IMG/VR virus record: IMGVR_UViG_3300005200_000008
Span: 25,931-89,930 of that record
Origin: a virus
Lineage: Duplodnaviria > Caudoviricetes
Length of the DNA stretch: 64,000 nt
Strand: one strand, 5' to 3'
Part shown: positions 9,616 through 43,495 of the stretch, piece by piece
Numbering within the stretch: position 1 is the stretch's first letter
Layout of the letters: each line of letters begins with the position of its first letter
The notes under the pieces: model-generated
The model's input: only the letters and a program-made list of their open reading frames with translations
Told to the model about the DNA's origin: nothing
The model's database searches: none
Program-made: the position numbers and the translations under genes

Positions 9616-10244
9616 TCCACATCTCCCATTTCAAATACCAACGGGCATTCCTTACGGCACTGCTCGTACAAAGGTATCATCAGCCTCCGCATATCGGGAT
9701 GGGCCGCCTTGCTGATAGCCCTCAGCCTGAATATGTGCCGCCATTCCCTAAAGTTCGCTTTAACGACAATCTCCGTTTTTACGCAGTTTGGAAGTACTGA
9801 TCTGGCCATTTGTGGCGTCCAGTTATTTGTCTTTAACAAATGGAGATAAAACTCTTCTGCATTACGACAACTTTCCTCCCATACCCCGCCGCTCGGAAGA
9901 TCACCGCCAGGCTGAATAAACGTTAATTCATTGCCGAATTTATCCTGACTGTAATTGCAGTACCTTGTGCTTTCCTGCACGAAGGAACAAAGCCGGTGCC
10001 TTACAATTTCATGGGTAATTCCGCGATCCGTAACAAGCCTCACCGTCATGGAACCGAATTCAATAACTGCTTCGTGACCGCGCCCGATAATCATTTTTAT
10101 AAACTTCTCATAACTGTCAAGGGTCATATGATCTTCGCTTTTATACGCGGTACGGCCGGCTTCTTCAATAAGCCGGCATTCATTACGCCATTCTTCTTCC
10201 GTGGCAGGAAACAGTATTTTATGGCTTTGCTTGACAATCTTCAT
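9612..10244 (-). CDS. thyX: FAD-dependent thymidylate synthase
   Basis: GHEAVIEF, RGITHEIVRHRLCSFVQESTRY, ARSVLP, AHPDMR. Confidence 0.92.
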   Translation of the reverse strand: MKIVKQSHKILFPATEEEWRNECRLIEEAGRTAYKSEDHMTLDSYEKFIKMIIGRGHEAVIEFGSMTVRLVTDRGITHEIVRHRLCSFVQESTRYCNYSQDKFGNELTFIQPGGDLPSGGVWEESCRNAEEFYLHLLKTNNWTPQMARSVLPNCVKTEIVVKANFREWRHIFRLRAISKAAHPDMRRLMIPLYEQCRKECPLVFEMGDVE

Positions 10245-10547
10245 AATTTAACTCCCTTTGCTATCTAAATAATAACTTCCGGCTCTCGCCCTTAATTTTC
10301 AATTTATTTGATTAAATCCCAACGTACAGGACGAAGCCGGCAACCGGGTATCCATATTTTTTTCGGTGCATCATATACCTGAATTTTTTGTATTCCTCAT
10401 ATGCGGGTTTTGATAATTTATACCATGACGATTTTGAAATACTGTCTTGTTCCAAAACCTCCCTGTATAAATTTGGATAGTGTTTTTTCGCCATTCTATG
10501 AATATCGTCGTTGAATATTATTTGCACCGAACAAGTTTTTTTCTCTT

Positions 10548-12659
10548 TCATGCAGCAACCCCTCCCGTAAACGTGAGAACTTGGGCGCCGAATTCGTTTT
10601 CAAGAAGTTCCCGCGTCTGCTCCTTATGGCTTACAATCAAAATTTGATCAAACAGTTTCAGACTGTCGCCGACGGTCTGATAAAACAGCATGGAATTCTT
10701 TTGGCTCGCGGCTGAATCCACTTCGTCCATCATTAAAGTTCGATTGTTTTGTACCCTGGACAAAGCCCATTTCCACGCCAAAGAAAATATGGATTTCTCG
10801 TACCCCGATGCCATGCCAGCGTCCATGCCTTTCGGCCCGTAAACCATGCGCAGGGCGTTTTTCTTGTCTTCCAGTTTCACGGTATACCGGCCGCTGTAGG
10901 TTTTACGCAGGAAGTCGTTCATCGACGTTTCCAAATCCTTGACGATTTTCGATATAACAAAAACAGGGAATTCGTTTTTAAGTATTTTAACGCAGGATTC
11001 CAATTCAGCGACCTCACGGGACACTTCCTGCAATTCAGTATCGAGACGTTTTATTTCCGTTTCATCGGTCTTCTTTTGCTTTGCGGTTTGTTCGTTCTGC
11101 TTAATAGCGGTTTCGCGCTCAGTCCTTACATCCTGATAATTGTCAATTTTCGATTTATTTTCTTTTGCAAGGGCTTGAACCTTCTCCAGTTTCCCCGCAG
11201 GATTTTCCACGGTAACAGCCTTCGCTTTATTCAACAAATCTTCTGTCTTGGCAAGGGAATTTCTTTTTTCTTCCAACAGGCTTTCCAGAATGGCAATTTC
11301 AGACTTTCCGGCTTCCGTCAGTTTTTTAAGATTTTCCGTTTCGCCGGAAAGCGCCGATTTCAAAGACTCCACCGAAGCCCTAGTCTCGCGCAAGTCGGAT
11401 TCATAATTTTGCGCCATCAATTCCCGCTCATGGATAAGTTTTGTTTTTCGGTCTTTATTTTCCTGATTGGTTTTGCTCAACTGGTTTATGCGTTCAGCCT
11501 CTTTTTCCAATACAAGTATGGACGCATATAACTCATTTTCCCTAACCGCATATTTATCCAGTTCCTTCTTCCGTTCCGCAACGGCAGCCTCGTCCTGGGG
11601 AAGTTTCTGACCGCAGGTCGGGCATACGTCGGAAACGGACAGTTCTTTTATTTTTCCCTTCACCACGCCCAATTCGGTTTTCGCTTTATTAAACGAATCC
11701 TGATCAAATTCAGGAACCCGCACAATTTTAATTTCGGCTATCTGCGCATCTTTGGCGGCAAGGCAGGTTGTTTTATTTGCCTCAATCAATTTTATTTCTT
11801 TTTCACCGGAATCAATCTCGATTTCCAACAGTACCGTTCGCTTTTTGCTTTCCAACGGCAGGGACTCCAGCGATTTCTTTTTTTCTTCGACCTGTTTACC
11901 GCACTGGTCTATTTCTTTTCTTGTTTTGTCTGCCTGAACGGTCAAATCGCCGACGGTCTTTATCGCGGTTTCATACTGCTCTTGCTCGGCTTTTAATTTT
12001 CCGATCTGCTCCATATTGGCAGAATACGCCGCCTGTAGCGCGTCGTATTCTTTTTCAGTCATAGGCAGTTCGGGAACGGGGGCATCTTCATATTTCTTAC
12101 TGCGCAAAATATTCAACTGCGTATTCAGCGCTGTTGTTTTTTTGCCGAGGGCGGCAAGGCTGTCGGCGATATTCTGCTGTTGGTTCTTGAATTCCAAATC
12201 GTATATCCGTTTCAGGTATTCCCGGCGGTCTGCCGGTTTAACGGTAACGACATCGATCTGCTGTTCAAGCGAAAGCATCGCCGCTTTAATGAGTTCCTGA
12301 TCGAATATCTTTTTAAGGTAATCCTTCGCTTCCTGACCGACGCGCACGTTATCGGGTGCCGACTTGTCAATAATCTGGCGTTCGGCTGTTTTAGAGCGCA
12401 CGTTATATTTCACGGTAACGTTGTACTGACGGCCTAAATGCTCGAAGTCAATATTTATTTCAAATTCATCGGCGTTCCAGTTTACATAATCGACCAGGGA
12501 ACCTTCATAGGAATCAAACAAGGCAAGGACAATCGCCTTGAATACGGTTGATTTTCCGTTTCCGTTCTCCCCGGAAAGAATAAAAATGCCCTTCCCGAAC
12601 CGGCGGTCAAAACTGCTGATACAGCCGAAGTTTTTGAGTTTGATATTATTAATTATCAT
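10548..12659 (-). CDS. SbcC/gp46-like SMC recombination ATPase
   Basis: GENGNGKST Walker A, long coiled coil, CPTC zinc hook, ASGYE signature, MMDE Walker B. Confidence 0.85.
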   Translation of the reverse strand: MIINNIKLKNFGCISSFDRRFGKGIFILSGENGNGKSTVFKAIVLALFDSYEGSLVDYVNWNADEFEINIDFEHLGRQYNVTVKYNVRSKTAERQIIDKSAPDNVRVGQEAKDYLKKIFDQELIKAAMLSLEQQIDVVTVKPADRREYLKRIYDLEFKNQQQNIADSLAALGKKTTALNTQLNILRSKKYEDAPVPELPMTEKEYDALQAAYSANMEQIGKLKAEQEQYETAIKTVGDLTVQADKTRKEIDQCGKQVEEKKKSLESLPLESKKRTVLLEIEIDSGEKEIKLIEANKTTCLAAKDAQIAEIKIVRVPEFDQDSFNKAKTELGVVKGKIKELSVSDVCPTCGQKLPQDEAAVAERKKELDKYAVRENELYASILVLEKEAERINQLSKTNQENKDRKTKLIHERELMAQNYESDLRETRASVESLKSALSGETENLKKLTEAGKSEIAILESLLEEKRNSLAKTEDLLNKAKAVTVENPAGKLEKVQALAKENKSKIDNYQDVRTERETAIKQNEQTAKQKKTDETEIKRLDTELQEVSREVAELESCVKILKNEFPVFVISKIVKDLETSMNDFLRKTYSGRYTVKLEDKKNALRMVYGPKGMDAGMASGYEKSIFSLAWKWALSRVQNNRTLMMDEVDSAASQKNSMLFYQTVGDSLKLFDQILIVSHKEQTRELLENEFGAQVLTFTGGVAA

Positions 12660-14098: not shown

Positions 14099-14121
14099 TT
14101 AAACAGCATTAGTAGAGACAT

Positions 14122-14226
14122 GGATAAAAGGCGGGAGTCGAACCCGCTCTGGAGACTCTGGGTTTACACGCCATTGTGTACTGTCCCGATACGCCTTCCC
14201 GTGCTTCCGTTACACTACAATCCTCC
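14122..14226 (-). ncRNA. tRNA-like element with enlarged anticodon domain
   Basis: D-like arm GTG-TAACGGAAG-CAC and T arm GCGGG-TTCGACT-CCCGC, but about 45 nt where the anticodon arm should be and an irregular acceptor stem. Confidence 0.4.
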
Positions 14227-14325
14227 AACCCGTCTTTCCGGGTCGCCAATGGATAATTTATACTTACCGCAACCTCGCGGGCCGTACATTAAGGACTTCC
14301 GACTCTTTATAGAAAAAGCTCAAAA

Positions 14326-15231
14326 TTATTCGGTTACTATTTGGGCATCGTCGGCTTTTGCCAACTGCTCCAGACGAACCATAGTACGCTCGATCTTCTG
14401 CAAATCTTCGGCGCTGTATTTGCTGTAAGCCTTTTTGATTTCGTCGTCTTTGTCGGGCGGCCTGCTGACATCCTGGAATATCGACGGCGCGTTCGGAACC
14501 GGCTTGAATATCGACAAAATGCTTTCTGCGGCGATATTGCTTTCGTGGCTCAAAGCGCGGTATAAAGTCATAAGGTCTTCAAAATTCATGCCGCCCGCTT
14601 CAAGTTGGGTTTGGAACTGCTGGTATACCAACTCTTGAAGGTCGTCTTTTTTCTTGATAATGCCAACCCTGTCTTTGAAAAATTGCAGAAGATTTTGTTT
14701 CAAATCTTCATACGGGTCTAAACCTGCAATCCGTAACGCATCATTTTTCAGATGACGGTCTTCCAGCGCCCCCGCTAATTTTCTCGCCTCGTCCTGTACT
14801 TCAGCCATTGTTTTATCCTCCCTCGAAACAGCCTGTAGTTTCTGAGCAAAATCATTATCCATGTTTTTTATTCTTCTGCTTATTGCGATTGAATTAAATT
14901 CAAACGGCACCAGTTCGTGTATTTCAGCCCAATCCTTATCCTCGATTTTTTTGTAATAATAGCAAAGCGTTAAAATAATCGCTTCCTTCAAATCAAGGCT
15001 TGACGGAAACCTTATAGTCCTGCCGCTTAACAGATGGGTAAGCCTGATAAAATTTTCCAGACCGAGAAGCCGGTATATATCGCTCACGTCGGCTATGTTG
15101 GCCGACGACTGGAATACAATACTCAGTATTTGAAACAGCGGGTCTTTCTGCGCTTCCGGCTTCGCCTTAAAAATATCCCTGAGTTGCTGTTCGTACAAAG
15201 TATTGGGCGATTCAAAAAAATCTCCAGCCAT
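14326..15231 (-). CDS. Mor-like activator N-terminal part joined to a second helical domain (internal RBS and ATG at 14808)
   Basis: LLGLENFIRL...GRTIRFP resembles Mor-type proteins; GGAGG-spaced internal ATG. Confidence 0.35.
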   Translation of the reverse strand: MAGDFFESPNTLYEQQLRDIFKAKPEAQKDPLFQILSIVFQSSANIADVSDIYRLLGLENFIRLTHLLSGRTIRFPSSLDLKEAIILTLCYYYKKIEDKDWAEIHELVPFEFNSIAISRRIKNMDNDFAQKLQAVSREDKTMAEVQDEARKLAGALEDRHLKNDALRIAGLDPYEDLKQNLLQFFKDRVGIIKKKDDLQELVYQQFQTQLEAGGMNFEDLMTLYRALSHESNIAAESILSIFKPVPNAPSIFQDVSRPPDKDDEIKKAYSKYSAEDLQKIERTMVRLEQLAKADDAQIVTE

Positions 15232-25663: not shown

Positions 25664-26338
25664 ATGAGAAAGGTATTGTTTGTTGCGTTTATTTTAACCA
25701 GGTTTTGGGCGTTCGGGCAAAGCGAGGACAGTTTCGCTATTTTGCAGGGCAAAGACGGCGGTATAACCGTTACCGGCTACACCGGCTCCCAAAAGGAAAT
25801 TGTAATCCCTGAGAAGATAAGCGGTCTGCCGGTAACCATAATCGGGAAGAACGCTTTCAGCAATAAAAGTTTGACAAAGGTTTCTATTCCCCGCACTGTC
25901 ACAATGGTTGACGAAAGGGCTTTTGCCGGTAACGCGATTACCGAAGTAACTATTGCTAACGGCGTAAAAGTAATTTGGAACGAGGCGTTTGCCGACAACC
26001 AGATAAAAAGCATAACGCTTCCAAACTCCATAACCGACGTGGGCGGTTCGGCTTTCCGCAATAATAAAATTACATCGGTCGTATGGCCGGCTAGTCTGGA
26101 TTTTGTGCGTATCGGCGTATTCCAGAATAATCCTGTAGAGACCGTTACCTTCGGCGGCGCCAAAACAATATCCGACAGGTCGTTTGAGGGTTCCGATATT
26201 TCATCTATTACCATAGCCAAGGATGTTTTAATTAATATCGAATCGGGGCTGGACAGGTCGTTTATCAATTTTTACAATAGCAACGGAAAACGTGCAGGCA
26301 CCTACATCAAAAACAACCGCATTTGGTCGGCAAAGTAA
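25664..26338 (+). CDS. exported BspA/TpLRR-type leucine-rich repeat protein
   Basis: signal peptide, ITVTGYTGS...IPEKISGLPVTIIG, repeated AF-N-IT-VTI-N units. Confidence 0.85.
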   Translation: MRKVLFVAFILTRFWAFGQSEDSFAILQGKDGGITVTGYTGSQKEIVIPEKISGLPVTIIGKNAFSNKSLTKVSIPRTVTMVDERAFAGNAITEVTIANGVKVIWNEAFADNQIKSITLPNSITDVGGSAFRNNKITSVVWPASLDFVRIGVFQNNPVETVTFGGAKTISDRSFEGSDISSITIAKDVLINIESGLDRSFINFYNSNGKRAGTYIKNNRIWSAK

Positions 26339-40905: not shown

Positions 40906-41538
40906 TTATAATTTTCCTAATTTTCGTCTGATTCTTAATGAAATTCTTCCGAAACCCCGATTTCTTGATCCAGTAGTAGATAATTGACTATTACAGTTTG
41001 GACAAACTAATCTTAAATTACTATGAAGGTGGTTTCTCCAATTTCCATCAATATGATCGAGAATAAAACCTAATGTTTTATTATTCCATAAATTTGAAAT
41101 ACCGCATATTGAACAGGAATAATTTTGTTCTTCTAAAATAGCTTTTTTAAAAAGACCTTTATATACCATATTTAATTCTTCATTTTCATAACTTACTTCT
41201 TTTGATACATCACTTCCTGATTTCCAACGTTTTAAAATATCGTTGTATTTGCTTAATTTTTTGTCTTTTTTAATTTTAATACATGATGAGCATAATTGTT
41301 GATTTCTGTTAGCTTCTCTTGTTTTTAATAAATTTCCACAAGAACAGTATTTGGGTTTATATGCTGGATTTTTTAATTGAATAAATTCAAGGCGTTTATC
41401 ATTAGCCCACGATTTTTGAAGATCGATTCTTTTATTTGCACATGATCTTGAACAAAATTGTGGTGTCTTTTTTCGTAATTTTCTAGACTTTCTATAATCG
41501 TCAGTAAATTCTTTTCCACAACATTTACAGATAAACAT
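40906..41538 (-). CDS. HNH endonuclease
   Basis: CSICG...LDHIDGNWRNH...NLRLVCPNCNSQ. Confidence 0.9.
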   Translation of the reverse strand: MFICKCCGKEFTDDYRKSRKLRKKTPQFCSRSCANKRIDLQKSWANDKRLEFIQLKNPAYKPKYCSCGNLLKTREANRNQQLCSSCIKIKKDKKLSKYNDILKRWKSGSDVSKEVSYENEELNMVYKGLFKKAILEEQNYSCSICGISNLWNNKTLGFILDHIDGNWRNHLHSNLRLVCPNCNSQLSTTGSRNRGFGRISLRIRRKLGKL

Positions 41539-41584
41539 TATTTGTCTCTATAAATGACTTCCGAATTGATTAATATTTATTCAA

Positions 41585-41657
41585 TGCCAGAGATGGGAAT
41601 CGCACCCATGACAAACGGATTTTCAATCCGTTGCTCTACTAGCTGAGCTACCCCGGC
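41585..41657 (-). tRNA. tRNA-Phe(GAA)
   Basis: GCCGGGG/CTCTGGC acceptor, ACGGA-TTGAAAA-TCCGT. Confidence 0.9.
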
Positions 41658-41662
41658 GAATC

Positions 41663-41733
41663 TGAGCATAGATGGACTCGAACCATCCTGAGTGGATTAA
41701 AAGTCCACGGCAGAACCTCTCTGCAATATGCTC
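41663..41733 (-). tRNA. tRNA-Lys(TTT)
   Basis: GAGCATA/TATGCTC acceptor, GTGGA-CTTTTAA-TCCAC. Confidence 0.88.
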
Positions 41734-41739
41734 ATTCTA

Positions 41740-41826
41740 CGGAACCGACAGGAATCGAACCTGCGAGTCGTATCCCTACGAACTACGGTTTTCGAGACCG
41801 TTTCCCATGCCAACTGGGTCAGTTCC
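41740..41826 (-). tRNA. tRNA-Ser(CGA)
   Basis: ACGGT-CTCGAAA-ACCGT, long variable arm, G73. Confidence 0.9.
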
Positions 41827-41833
41827 ATTAAGA

Positions 41834-41915
41834 CGGAAGGGGTGGGTTCCGACCCCACGCGCCCGAAAGCGACGGTTTAGCAAACCGCCCGTTTTGCCAA
41901 TTCACGCACCCTTCC
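41834..41915 (-). tRNA. tRNA-Ser(GCT)
   Basis: GCGGT-TTGCTAA-ACCGT, long variable arm, G73. Confidence 0.85.
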
Positions 41916-41925
41916 AAAAAAGCAT

Positions 41926-41959
41926 AAAAAAGGCGATAAACCGATGAGGTCTATCGCCT
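41926..41959 (-). terminator. attenuator terminator upstream of tRNA-Ser/Ser/Lys/Phe
   Basis: AGGCGATAGACC-TCATC-GGTTTATCGCCT-TTTTT. Confidence 0.85.
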
Positions 41960-41988
41960 AAAATTACATACCTAATTCTTATGTATGC

Positions 41989-42078
41989 TTAGACGACACC
42001 TCCGTTGAAATCGCTATGATCGCAACTAAACGATTTGGGTGAGAAGAATGAAGGTTTGGACGGCTTCAAAACATACAT
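41989..42078 (-). CDS. Ser/Lys/Phe-rich leader peptide (29 aa)
   Basis: MYVLKPSKPSFFSPKSFSCDHSDFNGGVV-stop; ATG 6 nt after the -10 box. Confidence 0.75.
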   Translation of the reverse strand: MYVLKPSKPSFFSPKSFSCDHSDFNGGVV

Positions 42079-42084
42079 AATCAT

Positions 42085-42113
42085 ATTGTCTCAAAAAATA
42101 CTTTTTTTGTCAA
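42085..42113 (-). promoter_or_regulatory. sigma70 promoter for leader A
   Basis: TTGACA-17 bp-GACAAT (TGn-extended). Confidence 0.7.
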
Positions 42114-42139
42114 GAGTATTTTTGAATAATTTTTAAAAA

Positions 42140-42225
42140 TGGGCAGGGAGGGATTCGAACCCCCATGTTTAGCACGCGGCAACTGATTTACAGTCAGCCC
42201 CCTTCACCAATTTGGATACCTGCCC
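42140..42225 (-). tRNA. tRNA-Tyr(GTA)
   Basis: GGGCAGG/CCTGCCC, GCTGA-CTGTAAA-TCAGT, long variable arm. Confidence 0.9.
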
Positions 42226-42229
42226 GTTG

Positions 42230-42302
42230 CTCCCGCAGAGGGACTTGAACCCCCAACCAACGGATTAACAATCCGCTGCTCTGCCGATTGAGCTACACGG
42301 GA
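42230..42302 (-). tRNA. tRNA-Asn(GTT)
   Basis: TCCCGTG/TGCGGGA, GCGGA-TTGTTAA-TCCGT. Confidence 0.9.
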
Positions 42303-42310
42303 ATAAAAAT

Positions 42311-42383
42311 AGCGGGAGGGGAAATCGAATCCTCAACATGACACTTTTGAGGTGTCCCTCTCTTCCAGATTGGAGTATCCCGC
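42311..42383 (-). tRNA. atypical tRNA with CAA anticodon (Leu by anticodon; short variable loop)
   Basis: GACAC-CTCAAAA-GTGTC; 6-bp acceptor GCGGGA/TCCCGC, U discriminator, irregular T stem. Confidence 0.55.
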
Positions 42384-42389
42384 CATATA

Positions 42390-42471
42390 TGCACAAGAGA
42401 GGACTTGCACCTCCACGCCCGAAGGCATTAGTTTCTAAGACTAACGCGGCTCCTAATTACGCCACTTGTGC
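42390..42471 (-). tRNA. tRNA-Leu(TAG)
   Basis: GCACAAG/CTTGTGC, TTAGT-CTTAGAA-ACTAA, long variable arm, A73. Confidence 0.9.
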
Positions 42472-42494
42472 TTAAAATCAACATTTTGGCAAAT

Positions 42495-42530
42495 AAAAAA
42501 GGCGGTTGCCCTTTATAGAGGACAACCGCC
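42495..42530 (-). terminator. attenuator terminator upstream of tRNA-Leu/Leu/Asn/Tyr
   Basis: GGCGGTTGTCC...GGGCAACCGCC-TTTTTT. Confidence 0.85.
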
Positions 42531-42559
42531 TTTTCATCCGGCTATGGATTATACCGAAT

Positions 42560-42640
42560 TCAGACTTGTCCCCTAAAATGGTAATAATAATTACCGAGGT
42601 TGAGGAATAATGAATTCAGGCACAAAACTTTCCGTTTCAT
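42560..42640 (-). CDS. Leu/Asn/Tyr-rich leader peptide (26 aa)
   Basis: MKRKVLCLNSLFLNLGNYYYHFRGQV-stop; ATG 6 nt after the -10 box. Confidence 0.75.
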   Translation of the reverse strand: MKRKVLCLNSLFLNLGNYYYHFRGQV

Positions 42641-42646
42641 ATTGCT

Positions 42647-42675
42647 ATAATACTAAAATTATAATTGTTTGTCAA
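42647..42675 (-). promoter_or_regulatory. sigma70 promoter for leader B
   Basis: TTGACA-17 bp-TATTAT. Confidence 0.75.
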
Positions 42676-42820
42676 GTGTCTTATTTAATATTTTTATTTT
42701 TTTTCAAAAAAACCTATTTTAACGATCCTCCTTTTTGTCAACGGCATTTCCGGGCAGGGTGCCGTTGACGCTTTTATTATAAAACCGGAAGTCCTTTATT
42801 ATAGGGAGGGTTGTATTTTT

Positions 42821-43495
42821 ATGAAGTTATTTACAGTTTTATTATGCTTTTTTACATTGCTGGTTACCTCATATTCTTTTTACAGTTCTGAAATTGTTTT
42901 ACCTTTTAAATTTGCTTGCGAACTGGAAAATATGACAGTTGTCGAGGATAAGCTTCTGTCCGTTAATTCCGATTTTATTGACGAAGGGTACGATTTGGAC
43001 GGCATTGTTTTATATATTAAAGAACAGTGCCACTTGGTAGGCGTAAATTACTCTTTTGCCGTTGCTTTACTGCGGGAAGAAAATTCTGCATTTTTCGGAT
43101 TGCTTGAAGGCGGGACAGTTTGCGAATATGCGTTTGAAACGTGCCACAACAATCTTGATAATGCTTCGGAAGTTGCTTCCCGCGATCTTGGCTTGTGGCA
43201 GTTAAATGACAGTTATTTGTGGGATGATTTTGTTCCAAGGCATTGGCACGGTAAAACCGATTTCGATTGGAAAAATCCGTATCATAGCACGTATGTAGCC
43301 GTTCGTCATATTAATTGGCTGTATAACGTAATTCAAGACAACTGGATTGCAAAAGGAATTCCGCAGTTTCAAAATACGTTGTATTGGGAAACGGCGATTG
43401 CTTACAATGCCGGCGTTACAAGAGTTTTAAACAAAGATATTCCTGCTTCCGCTTTAGATTACGCTTCCCGTGTCATGGAAAAGTTTTTTGAATAA
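42821..43495 (+). CDS. SLT-type lytic transglycosylase
   Basis: ALLREEN catalytic Glu, DLGLWQLN, NPY, AIAYNAG; N-terminal hydrophobic segment. Confidence 0.8.
   Translation: MKLFTVLLCFFTLLVTSYSFYSSEIVLPFKFACELENMTVVEDKLLSVNSDFIDEGYDLDGIVLYIKEQCHLVGVNYSFAVALLREENSAFFGLLEGGTVCEYAFETCHNNLDNASEVASRDLGLWQLNDSYLWDDFVPRHWHGKTDFDWKNPYHSTYVAVRHINWLYNVIQDNWIAKGIPQFQNTLYWETAIAYNAGVTRVLNKDIPASALDYASRVMEKFFE

Follow-up and report, generated by a model that had tools for sequence, protein, structure and literature searches.

A putative leader-peptide attenuator ahead of a phage tRNA gene block

In the transcription attenuators of enterobacteria (trpL, hisL, leuL, pheL, thrL, the multivalent ilvL and ivbL, and that of pheST), a short open reading frame (ORF) carrying regulatory codons precedes the controlled genes. 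Their leader RNAs hold four regions whose 1:2, 2:3 and 3:4 pairings exclude one another, the stop codon of the leader ORF lies beside region 2, and an intrinsic terminator stands right before the regulated genes; the thr and ilv leaders read several amino acids. Each of these features has a counterpart in leader B, a unit that runs from 42675 to 42140, with all its elements on the minus strand, in the 64,000-nucleotide (nt) stretch of phage DNA analysed here (the window). The window covers positions 25,931 to 89,930 of the 89.9-kb IMG/VR virus record IMGVR_UViG_3300005200_000008, which has an estimated completeness of ~42%. The genes downstream of leader B are four tRNA genes. What phages use tRNA genes for is an open question, and the ideas put forward include that they match codon usage, make up for host tRNAs that have been degraded or let the phage evade anticodon nucleases. 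We think it likely that the leader-B unit is a ribosome-mediated, translation-coupled transcription attenuator that gates this tRNA block, and our confidence is limited because the evidence comes from sequence and computation, with a small sample of related genomes.

The unit begins with a -35 hexamer TTGACA (42670-42675) and a -10 hexamer TATTAT (42647-42652), which are separated by a 17-nt spacer, match 11 of 12 consensus positions and read as a sigma-70-type, host-type promoter. The ATG of the leader ORF is at 42640, 6 nt past the -10 hexamer, and an earlier note on this DNA had described this geometry correctly. The ORF is followed by the terminator and, 23 nt beyond the end of the terminator, by genes called as tRNA-Leu (anticodon UAG, 42390-42471), a CAA-anticodon tRNA-Leu of 77 nt with a short body (42309-42385), tRNA-Asn (GUU, 42229-42302) and tRNA-Tyr (GUA, 42140-42225). 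Promoter, ATG, ORF and terminator are packed directly upstream of the first tRNA, with no space for a second promoter. Since the genes upstream of the leader-B promoter have the opposite orientation and no other promoter is visible, every transcript of the tRNA block must cross the terminator.

Homologues of leader B are present on seven independent metagenomic contigs (L004, L006, L008, L009, L010, L011 and L084). These relatives are distinct genomes rather than assembly duplicates, with terminases 77-81% identical to that of the window phage and differing tRNA contents. Their arrays of 11-21 tRNAs lie on the minus strand in the syntenic place, each headed by a homologue of leader A, which in the window belongs to the neighbouring tRNA module, and with the leader-B homologue before a terminal Leu...Asn-Tyr block. 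The module order in the window is the opposite of that in the relatives, so a promoter, its leader, its terminator and its tRNA block behave as one unit that can move. All 15 leader units, counting both families in the window and its relatives, have TTGACA, and in most of them the ATG falls 6-7 nt past the -10 hexamer, the exceptions being the L010 unit (12 nt) and leader A of L004 and L011 (9-10 nt). We therefore assume that a leaderless mRNA is the conserved geometry of these units. In L006 (9830-9940) and L084 (4118-4225), an insertion of ~105 nt on the minus strand separates the promoter from the leader-B ORF, and this insertion holds two mini-ORFs of 10-11 codons.

The leader-B ORF (42560-42640) consists of 26 codons and a TGA stop, and its predicted product is MKRKVLCLNSLFLNLGNYYYHFRGQV, as the earlier note had given it. 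The set of residues to be counted was fixed beforehand by the tRNAs that lie downstream: Leu, Asn and Tyr. As the earlier note had stated, 11 of the 15 central residues (residues 6-20) belong to this set (five Leu, three Asn and three Tyr), with the codons it listed. Its further claim that the codons roughly follow the order of the tRNA genes stands in part: the Tyr codons do come last, while the Leu and Asn codons are interleaved. After the initiator Met, the three residues make up 11 of 25 positions in the window and 15-17 of 25-29 in the relatives, or 44-61% of leader-B residues (11/25 to 17/28), compared with the 0.17 expected from the long ORFs of the phage (binomial P from 1.5e-3 in the window to 3e-7 across the leader-B relatives). 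Among the 207 ORFs of 20-40 codons in the window, zero to two reach the fractions seen in the various B leaders, and two reach that of the window leader. The correspondence can also be followed to individual codons in the full arrays, where it reaches 16/25 for leader B (L008, L009) and 19/25 for leader A; the window shows the weakest match.

Several observations argue that this ORF is maintained as a reading frame. All 15 leaders of the two families, including the 8/8 B leaders that answer the earlier note's call for conservation in relatives, keep frame 0 open, and stops interrupt the shifted frames in 28 of 30 cases in the same leaders. Differences in ORF length among the relatives are multiples of three, and one 12-nt insertion adds Leu-Leu-Asn-Ser. 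The pooled ratio of nonsynonymous to synonymous differences (pN/pS) for leader B rises from 0.40 in frame to 0.74 and 1.20 when the frame is shifted; for leader A the in-frame value is 0.68 and the shifted frames give ~1.0. Near-invariant Leu columns use up to four different synonymous codons, and Asn and Tyr columns show exchanges between AAU and AAC and between UAU and UAC. This synonymous exchange points to selection on what the codons mean at those positions and not on a protein fold. From these patterns we infer that the leader ORF is translated.

The RNA that carries the ORF can fold in competing ways. The intrinsic terminator (42495-42535) is a 17-bp stem of -31.4 kcal/mol followed by T6, with its 5' arm at 42535-42519, its loop at 42518-42513 and its 3' arm at 42512-42496. 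Region 2 (42562-42575), the 5' strand of the predicted antiterminator, spans the final four sense codons plus the first stop-codon base (positions -13 to 0). Its partner within the terminator 5' arm and loop is region 3 (42516-42531), whose core, AAGGCGGTTGTCC, is invariant in 8/8 B leaders. The earlier note had proposed that the end of the leader pairs over 10 bp with this part of the terminator, and it does: TAGGGGACAA (42575-42566) is complementary to TTGTCCTCTA (42525-42516), and four more pairs (GUCU:AGGC) extend the duplex to 14 bp. RNAduplex gives -17.5 kcal/mol for the region 2:3 duplex of the window and -13.5 to -19.2 kcal/mol for those of the relatives. A nested 7-bp hairpin of 24 nt (42536-42559) lies between the stop codon and the terminator and is enclosed by the antiterminator. 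Upstream, region 1 (42602-42625) comprises codons 6-13 and is rich in Leu and Asn codons. The minimum free energy (MFE) structure of ribosome-free leader RNA joins it to region 2 and the surroundings of the stop (nt 16-39 with nt 68-92) and thereby sequesters region 2, and L006, L008, L009, L010 and L084 adopt similar folds. The folds also contain a 6-bp hairpin inside the ORF (42580-42595, from Gly16 to Tyr20). It carries a compensatory change from U-A to C-G between the window and L006, L008 and L009, in which the third Tyr of the window becomes Cys in the relatives. Part of the conservation of the leader ORF is thus at the RNA level. This hairpin is possibly a pause hairpin for RNA polymerase.

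Because equilibrium folds of the full leader always hold the terminator, we folded the leader as it stands before the terminator 3' arm has been made; an equilibrium model of the full leader was dropped, since the antiterminator never appears in such folds of family B. In every one of the 15 pre-3'-arm folds (8 B, 7 A), the terminator 5' arm is paired to the final 11-16 nt of the ORF in a helix that encloses the nested hairpin. The partner lies at positions -16 to 0 from the stop in all but leader A of L008, whose ORF is two codons longer and whose partner lies at -19 to -6. The pairing gain of the window B leader is -15.7 kcal, compared with -5.4 +/- 2.4 in dinucleotide shuffles, none of which reached the observed value (0/100). 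Across the leaders the gain ranges from -8 to -19 kcal, which relative to dinucleotide shuffles corresponds to z from -1.4 to -5.7, with one weak exception in leader A of L004, and 69 of 900 shuffles placed at least 8 partner bases in the stop-proximal window. When a ribosome footprint is masked with its A site on the stop codon, the region 2:3 pairing is lost; it persists when the A site is placed on codons 9-17. The terminator 5' arm does not vary among the eight B leaders, and the 3' arm drifts through G.U wobbles, as is expected of a strand that has two partners. When the antiterminator is held in fixed register in the alignment, 85% of cells are paired, compared with 40-62% in slid controls. 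RNAalifold on the truncated alignment recovers the antiterminator only in part because L004 and L011 use a shifted register. These models suggest a kinetic competition between terminator and antiterminator.

Five features of a ribosome-mediated attenuator can be recognized in leader B: an ORF in a conserved frame before the regulated genes, enrichment in codons that report on them, an intrinsic terminator between ORF and genes, an antiterminator that shares a strand with the terminator and can be occluded at the stop codon, and a region 1 that sequesters region 2 in free RNA. We propose that host sigma-70-type RNA polymerase would start at or next to the AUG and that 70S ribosomes would follow it, translating the leaderless ORF of 26 codons during transcription of the leader. 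When Leu, Asn and Tyr codons are decoded fast, the ribosome would reach the UGA and cover the final 14 nt of the ORF, which form region 2, region 3 would pair with region 4 (the terminator 3' arm), and transcription would stop before the tRNA genes. When decoding is slow, the ribosome would stall at codons 6-18, over region 1, and the freed region 2 would capture region 3 as it emerges; no terminator would form, and polymerase would read through into the genes for tRNA-Leu, Leu, Asn and Tyr. The slowness, which we infer to be the physiological signal, could come from scarcity of charged tRNA-Leu, tRNA-Asn or tRNA-Tyr caused by a mismatch between codons and the host tRNA pool, by tRNA damage or by starvation. 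Candidate triggers are such a mismatch of codon use and tRNA pool, tRNA loss in infection and a nuclease-based defence. Because the tRNA products decode the sensor codons of the leader, new tRNAs would speed its decoding and thereby exert negative feedback on tRNA supply. The earlier note had also linked the Asn and Tyr tRNAs to colicin E5-type nucleases; this is speculation that we do not favour, because the other GUN tRNAs of the relatives, His and Asp, sit in the other block.

If leaders sense the tRNAs that they control, their composition should follow their cargo, and the comparison among relatives is consistent with this. The L010 block is without any Leu tRNA, and its leader has four Leu codons where its closest relatives have seven to eight, through three Leu-to-Pro changes and one Leu-to-Phe change. 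As a single event, this apparent tie between loss of the tRNA and loss of the residue is suggestive only. In family A, the earlier note's idea of permuting leader composition against cluster identity could be carried out: residues that match a leader's own tRNA set exceed those of permuted leader and cargo pairings, with 36 of 5040 permutations reaching the observed value, and 108 of 5040 reach the observed concordance of presence and absence; both counts treat the relatives as independent, with phylogeny uncontrolled. Blocks without Thr, Ile, Arg and Trp tRNAs (the window and L004) have family-A leaders without those residues, and L011 has both the only block without tRNA-Cys and the only family-A leader without Cys. 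The note's view of a modular, multi-amino-acid attenuator thus appears to gain support from the conserved frame, the enrichment in cognate residues, the swapped module order and the composition that tracks cargo. It is possible, though we propose it only tentatively, that the modules are autoregulatory sensors of tRNA supply that deliver each block on demand, as ribosomes slow at the very codons its tRNAs read, including when a host defence nuclease or turnover induced by the phage has depleted particular host tRNAs, with each unit co-evolving as a whole and its codons rewritten as the cargo changes.

A number of observations weigh against the attenuator. Under strict wobble rules, the tRNAs of the window block read 8/21 sensor codons, and UUA and two CUC codons have no strict cognate there; the body of the CAA-anticodon tRNA is, besides, unusually short. 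Constraint from RNA structure inside the ORF confounds pN/pS, as the Tyr-to-Cys change compensated in the ORF-internal hairpin illustrates. Initiation without a leader is an assumption for leader B, and the insertions in L006 and L084 put ~105 nt between promoter and ORF; no Shine-Dalgarno sequence there is convincing. Since the full-length MFE fold always contains the terminator, the switch requires kinetic, co-transcriptional competition; the same dominance of the terminator at equilibrium holds for classical attenuators. Covariation in the antiterminator is modest, with three pairs showing double changes, a number reached by 62 of 500 shuffles, and comparison of own with cross region 2:3 duplexes gives P values of ~0.03 for family B and ~0.09 for family A. 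The relatives are few and phylogenetically non-independent. Finally, amino-acid starvation would also trigger read-through, in a state where extra tRNA is no help.

We weighed the attenuator against four other accounts of the locus. The arrangement of a strong promoter, a terminator ~146 nt downstream and then genes recalls lambda PR', 6S RNA and tR', where a Q-type factor brings about antitermination on a short constitutive transcript; under this account the ORF is incidental, and the conserved -10-like TATAAT/TATTAT at 42553-42548 could be a sigma-dependent pause or a factor-loading site. Such a factor leaves unexplained the conserved open frame with its frame-keeping indels and Leu/Asn/Tyr enrichment, the position of the antiterminator strand under the stop codon in two unrelated leaders, and the leader changes that accompany tRNA loss. 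No antiterminator gene turned up, though no systematic search for Q-like genes was made, and we consider this account improbable. We give the same small weight to the idea that the hairpin senses nothing and acts as a constitutive partial terminator or insulator, or as a processing or stability element, that fixes a low tRNA level. The terminator does dominate every equilibrium fold, and a structured 5' leader would be tolerable on tRNA precursors, which undergo processing in any case. A fixed attenuator, however, would need neither an ORF, nor an invariant 5' arm beside a drifting 3' arm, nor a conserved competing helix at the stop codon.

The promoter, ORF and terminator might instead form an independent small gene, for a peptide of 26-30 residues or a terminated small RNA, with the tRNAs expressed by leak-through. 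The leader peptide has a basic N terminus and a partly hydrophobic core, and there is precedent for action in trans by a liberated attenuator RNA or leader peptide in Sinorhizobium rnTrpL and peTrpL (PMC6614838, PMC7298713). A role in trans would be compatible with a cis switch, and what is conserved is the identity of the Leu, Asn and Tyr codons, not a fold; a membrane helix would require a longer and less polar peptide. As the earlier note had observed for the two neighbouring leaders, the families have no peptide similarity, and what they share is architecture. A separate gene is accordingly improbable as well; a reading of the ORF as a membrane peptide or type I toxin was rejected on the same lack of similarity between families and the polar character of leader A. 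An ORF arising by chance in the AT-rich spacer between promoter and terminator also has to be considered, given how common ORFs of this length are in the window. Against this stand the conservation, frame keeping, enrichment and positional coincidence of the ORF, and the fact that the relatives, with their divergent terminases and differing tRNA contents, are not duplicates of one genome. The earlier note's judgement that chance is an unlikely source is borne out by the rarity of such a composition among short ORFs, by the shuffles that never reached the observed pairing and by the conservation of the unit in seven relatives, and we regard chance as a very remote prospect. The translation-coupled attenuator therefore continues to be the reading that we prefer.

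The neighbouring module A (41585-42113) has the same architecture as module B: a promoter, a Ser/Lys/Phe-rich leader ORF (41989-42084), a terminator (41931-41959) and then tRNA-Ser, Ser, Lys and Phe, all on the minus strand. The 26 kb of the virus record that precede the window contain no further tRNAs, and no leader unit was found in the region before tRNA-Gln (14099-14420). The best Rfam match of tRNA-Ser(CGA) (41739-41827, minus strand) is the tRNA-Sec model, at 41.2 bits against a threshold of 47 bits, and the Ser(UGA) homologues in L004 and L010 exceed that threshold; the long variable arm is the probable cause of these scores, rather than a genuine selenocysteine identity. Leu-anticodon tRNAs of 73-77 nt, like the CAA-anticodon tRNA of the window, also occur in L004, L008 and L009. 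They have class I length and no long variable arm, and their amino-acid identity is uncertain; the proposed attenuator would still sense codon decoding. An HNH-like ORF adjoins block A (40906-41538 of the window, minus strand), and a GIY-YIG gene lies inside the L006 array (10095-10682, minus strand) beside tRNA fragments. Homing-endonuclease-type genes at the arrays may explain their differing content and the swapped order of the modules.

Two further sequence elements of the locus deserve mention. The loop of the nested hairpin in leader B contains TATAAT (42548-42553, minus strand), a perfect -10-like hexamer that is kept as a TATTAT-like sequence in the relatives and has no good -35 partner. 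Transcripts begun at this hexamer would still have the terminator ahead of them, and the hexamer itself may serve as a sigma-dependent pause element. The other element, the motif CGGAAGTCCTT, occurs repeatedly ahead of phage genes (42776-42790, plus strand) and near tRNA-Gln (~14295-14305, minus strand). It differs from the sigma-70-type promoters of the tRNA modules and may be a promoter specific to the phage, and a host-type promoter at the tRNA modules alongside a different motif at neighbouring phage genes fits early transcription of the modules by host polymerase.

Four contigs with the terminase (L007, L013, L085 and L086) have no tRNA array within the DNA examined, and a terminase profile search returned 10 distant loci, at 45-61% identity, none with a nearby tRNA array. 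The leader has no homologue among cultured phage genomes (INPHARED), where matches are confined to the tRNA genes; in IMG/VR, searches with an SLT-like protein and the terminase were without match, and no IMG/VR contig shares the leader. Scans with a pattern of the invariant terminator arm gave only chance terminators, with 51 matches in IMG/VR and nine in JGI metagenomes, one of the latter on the already known L005 contig. The 15 matches in GTDB genomes include none that adjoins tRNAs, and no prophage copy was found among them, so the terminator-arm pattern does not identify a host. The FliG encoded by the phage (59586-60800, plus strand) does point to one. It shares 77-78% identity with the FliG proteins of Treponema sp. 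and Leadbettera azotonutricia across ~83% of its sequence and has an N-terminal extension, and because of this identity the host is probably a termite-gut-type treponeme.

The arrays of the relatives also contain conserved gaps between tRNA genes. Unassigned stretches of 127-133 nt on the minus strand (L008:7793-7921, L009:5451-5583, L010:4920-5048 and L084:5038-5164) are RNA-like, with tRNA-like ends (a GGGCC... start and a ...GGTCCA end) around a long insert, and neither ARAGORN nor Rfam makes a call on them. Other conserved gaps of 86-109 nt are found at L004:10143-10251, L011:9807-9915, L004:9984-10069, L006:10966-11053 and L008:8379-8466.

If the proposed attenuator operates as outlined, the phage would make these tRNAs on demand and not constitutively, and the codon content of each leader would serve as a readable label of the decoding shortage that its tRNA block answers. 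It would also be the first case of leader-peptide attenuation that controls the decoding molecules themselves; we found no prior report of such attenuation of tRNA genes in the literature, including a genome-wide survey of attenuators, within what was an incomplete coverage of that literature.

Two described systems other than the enterobacterial attenuators resemble leader B in part. T-box riboswitches likewise switch between a terminator and an antiterminator in cis in answer to tRNA charging, and they regulate synthetase, biosynthesis and transporter genes. Their contact with uncharged tRNA is direct, made by a specifier codon and the T-box bulge, and they need no translation, whereas leader B has a conserved ORF that looks translated. 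The T-box model (RF00230) has no match in 41400-42900 at E<=10, and an Rfam search at the same threshold returned only tRNAs and noise, with no match to a known leader family. The lambda PR'-6S RNA-tR' system shares with leader B a constitutive promoter, a short terminated transcript and genes that are expressed after antitermination. Q acts on RNA polymerase through a DNA site and a pause, independently of any ORF, whereas the competing helix and the codons of leader B point to a ribosome. The enterobacterial attenuators remain the closest parallel, and leader B differs from them in being phage-borne and apparently leaderless, with no Shine-Dalgarno sequence, and in having its regulatory codons dispersed rather than in tandem. 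It also departs from their classical scope: they regulate genes for biosynthesis or for aminoacyl-tRNA synthetases, whereas leader B stands before tRNA genes, where the molecule sensed would be the charged product of the very genes under control.

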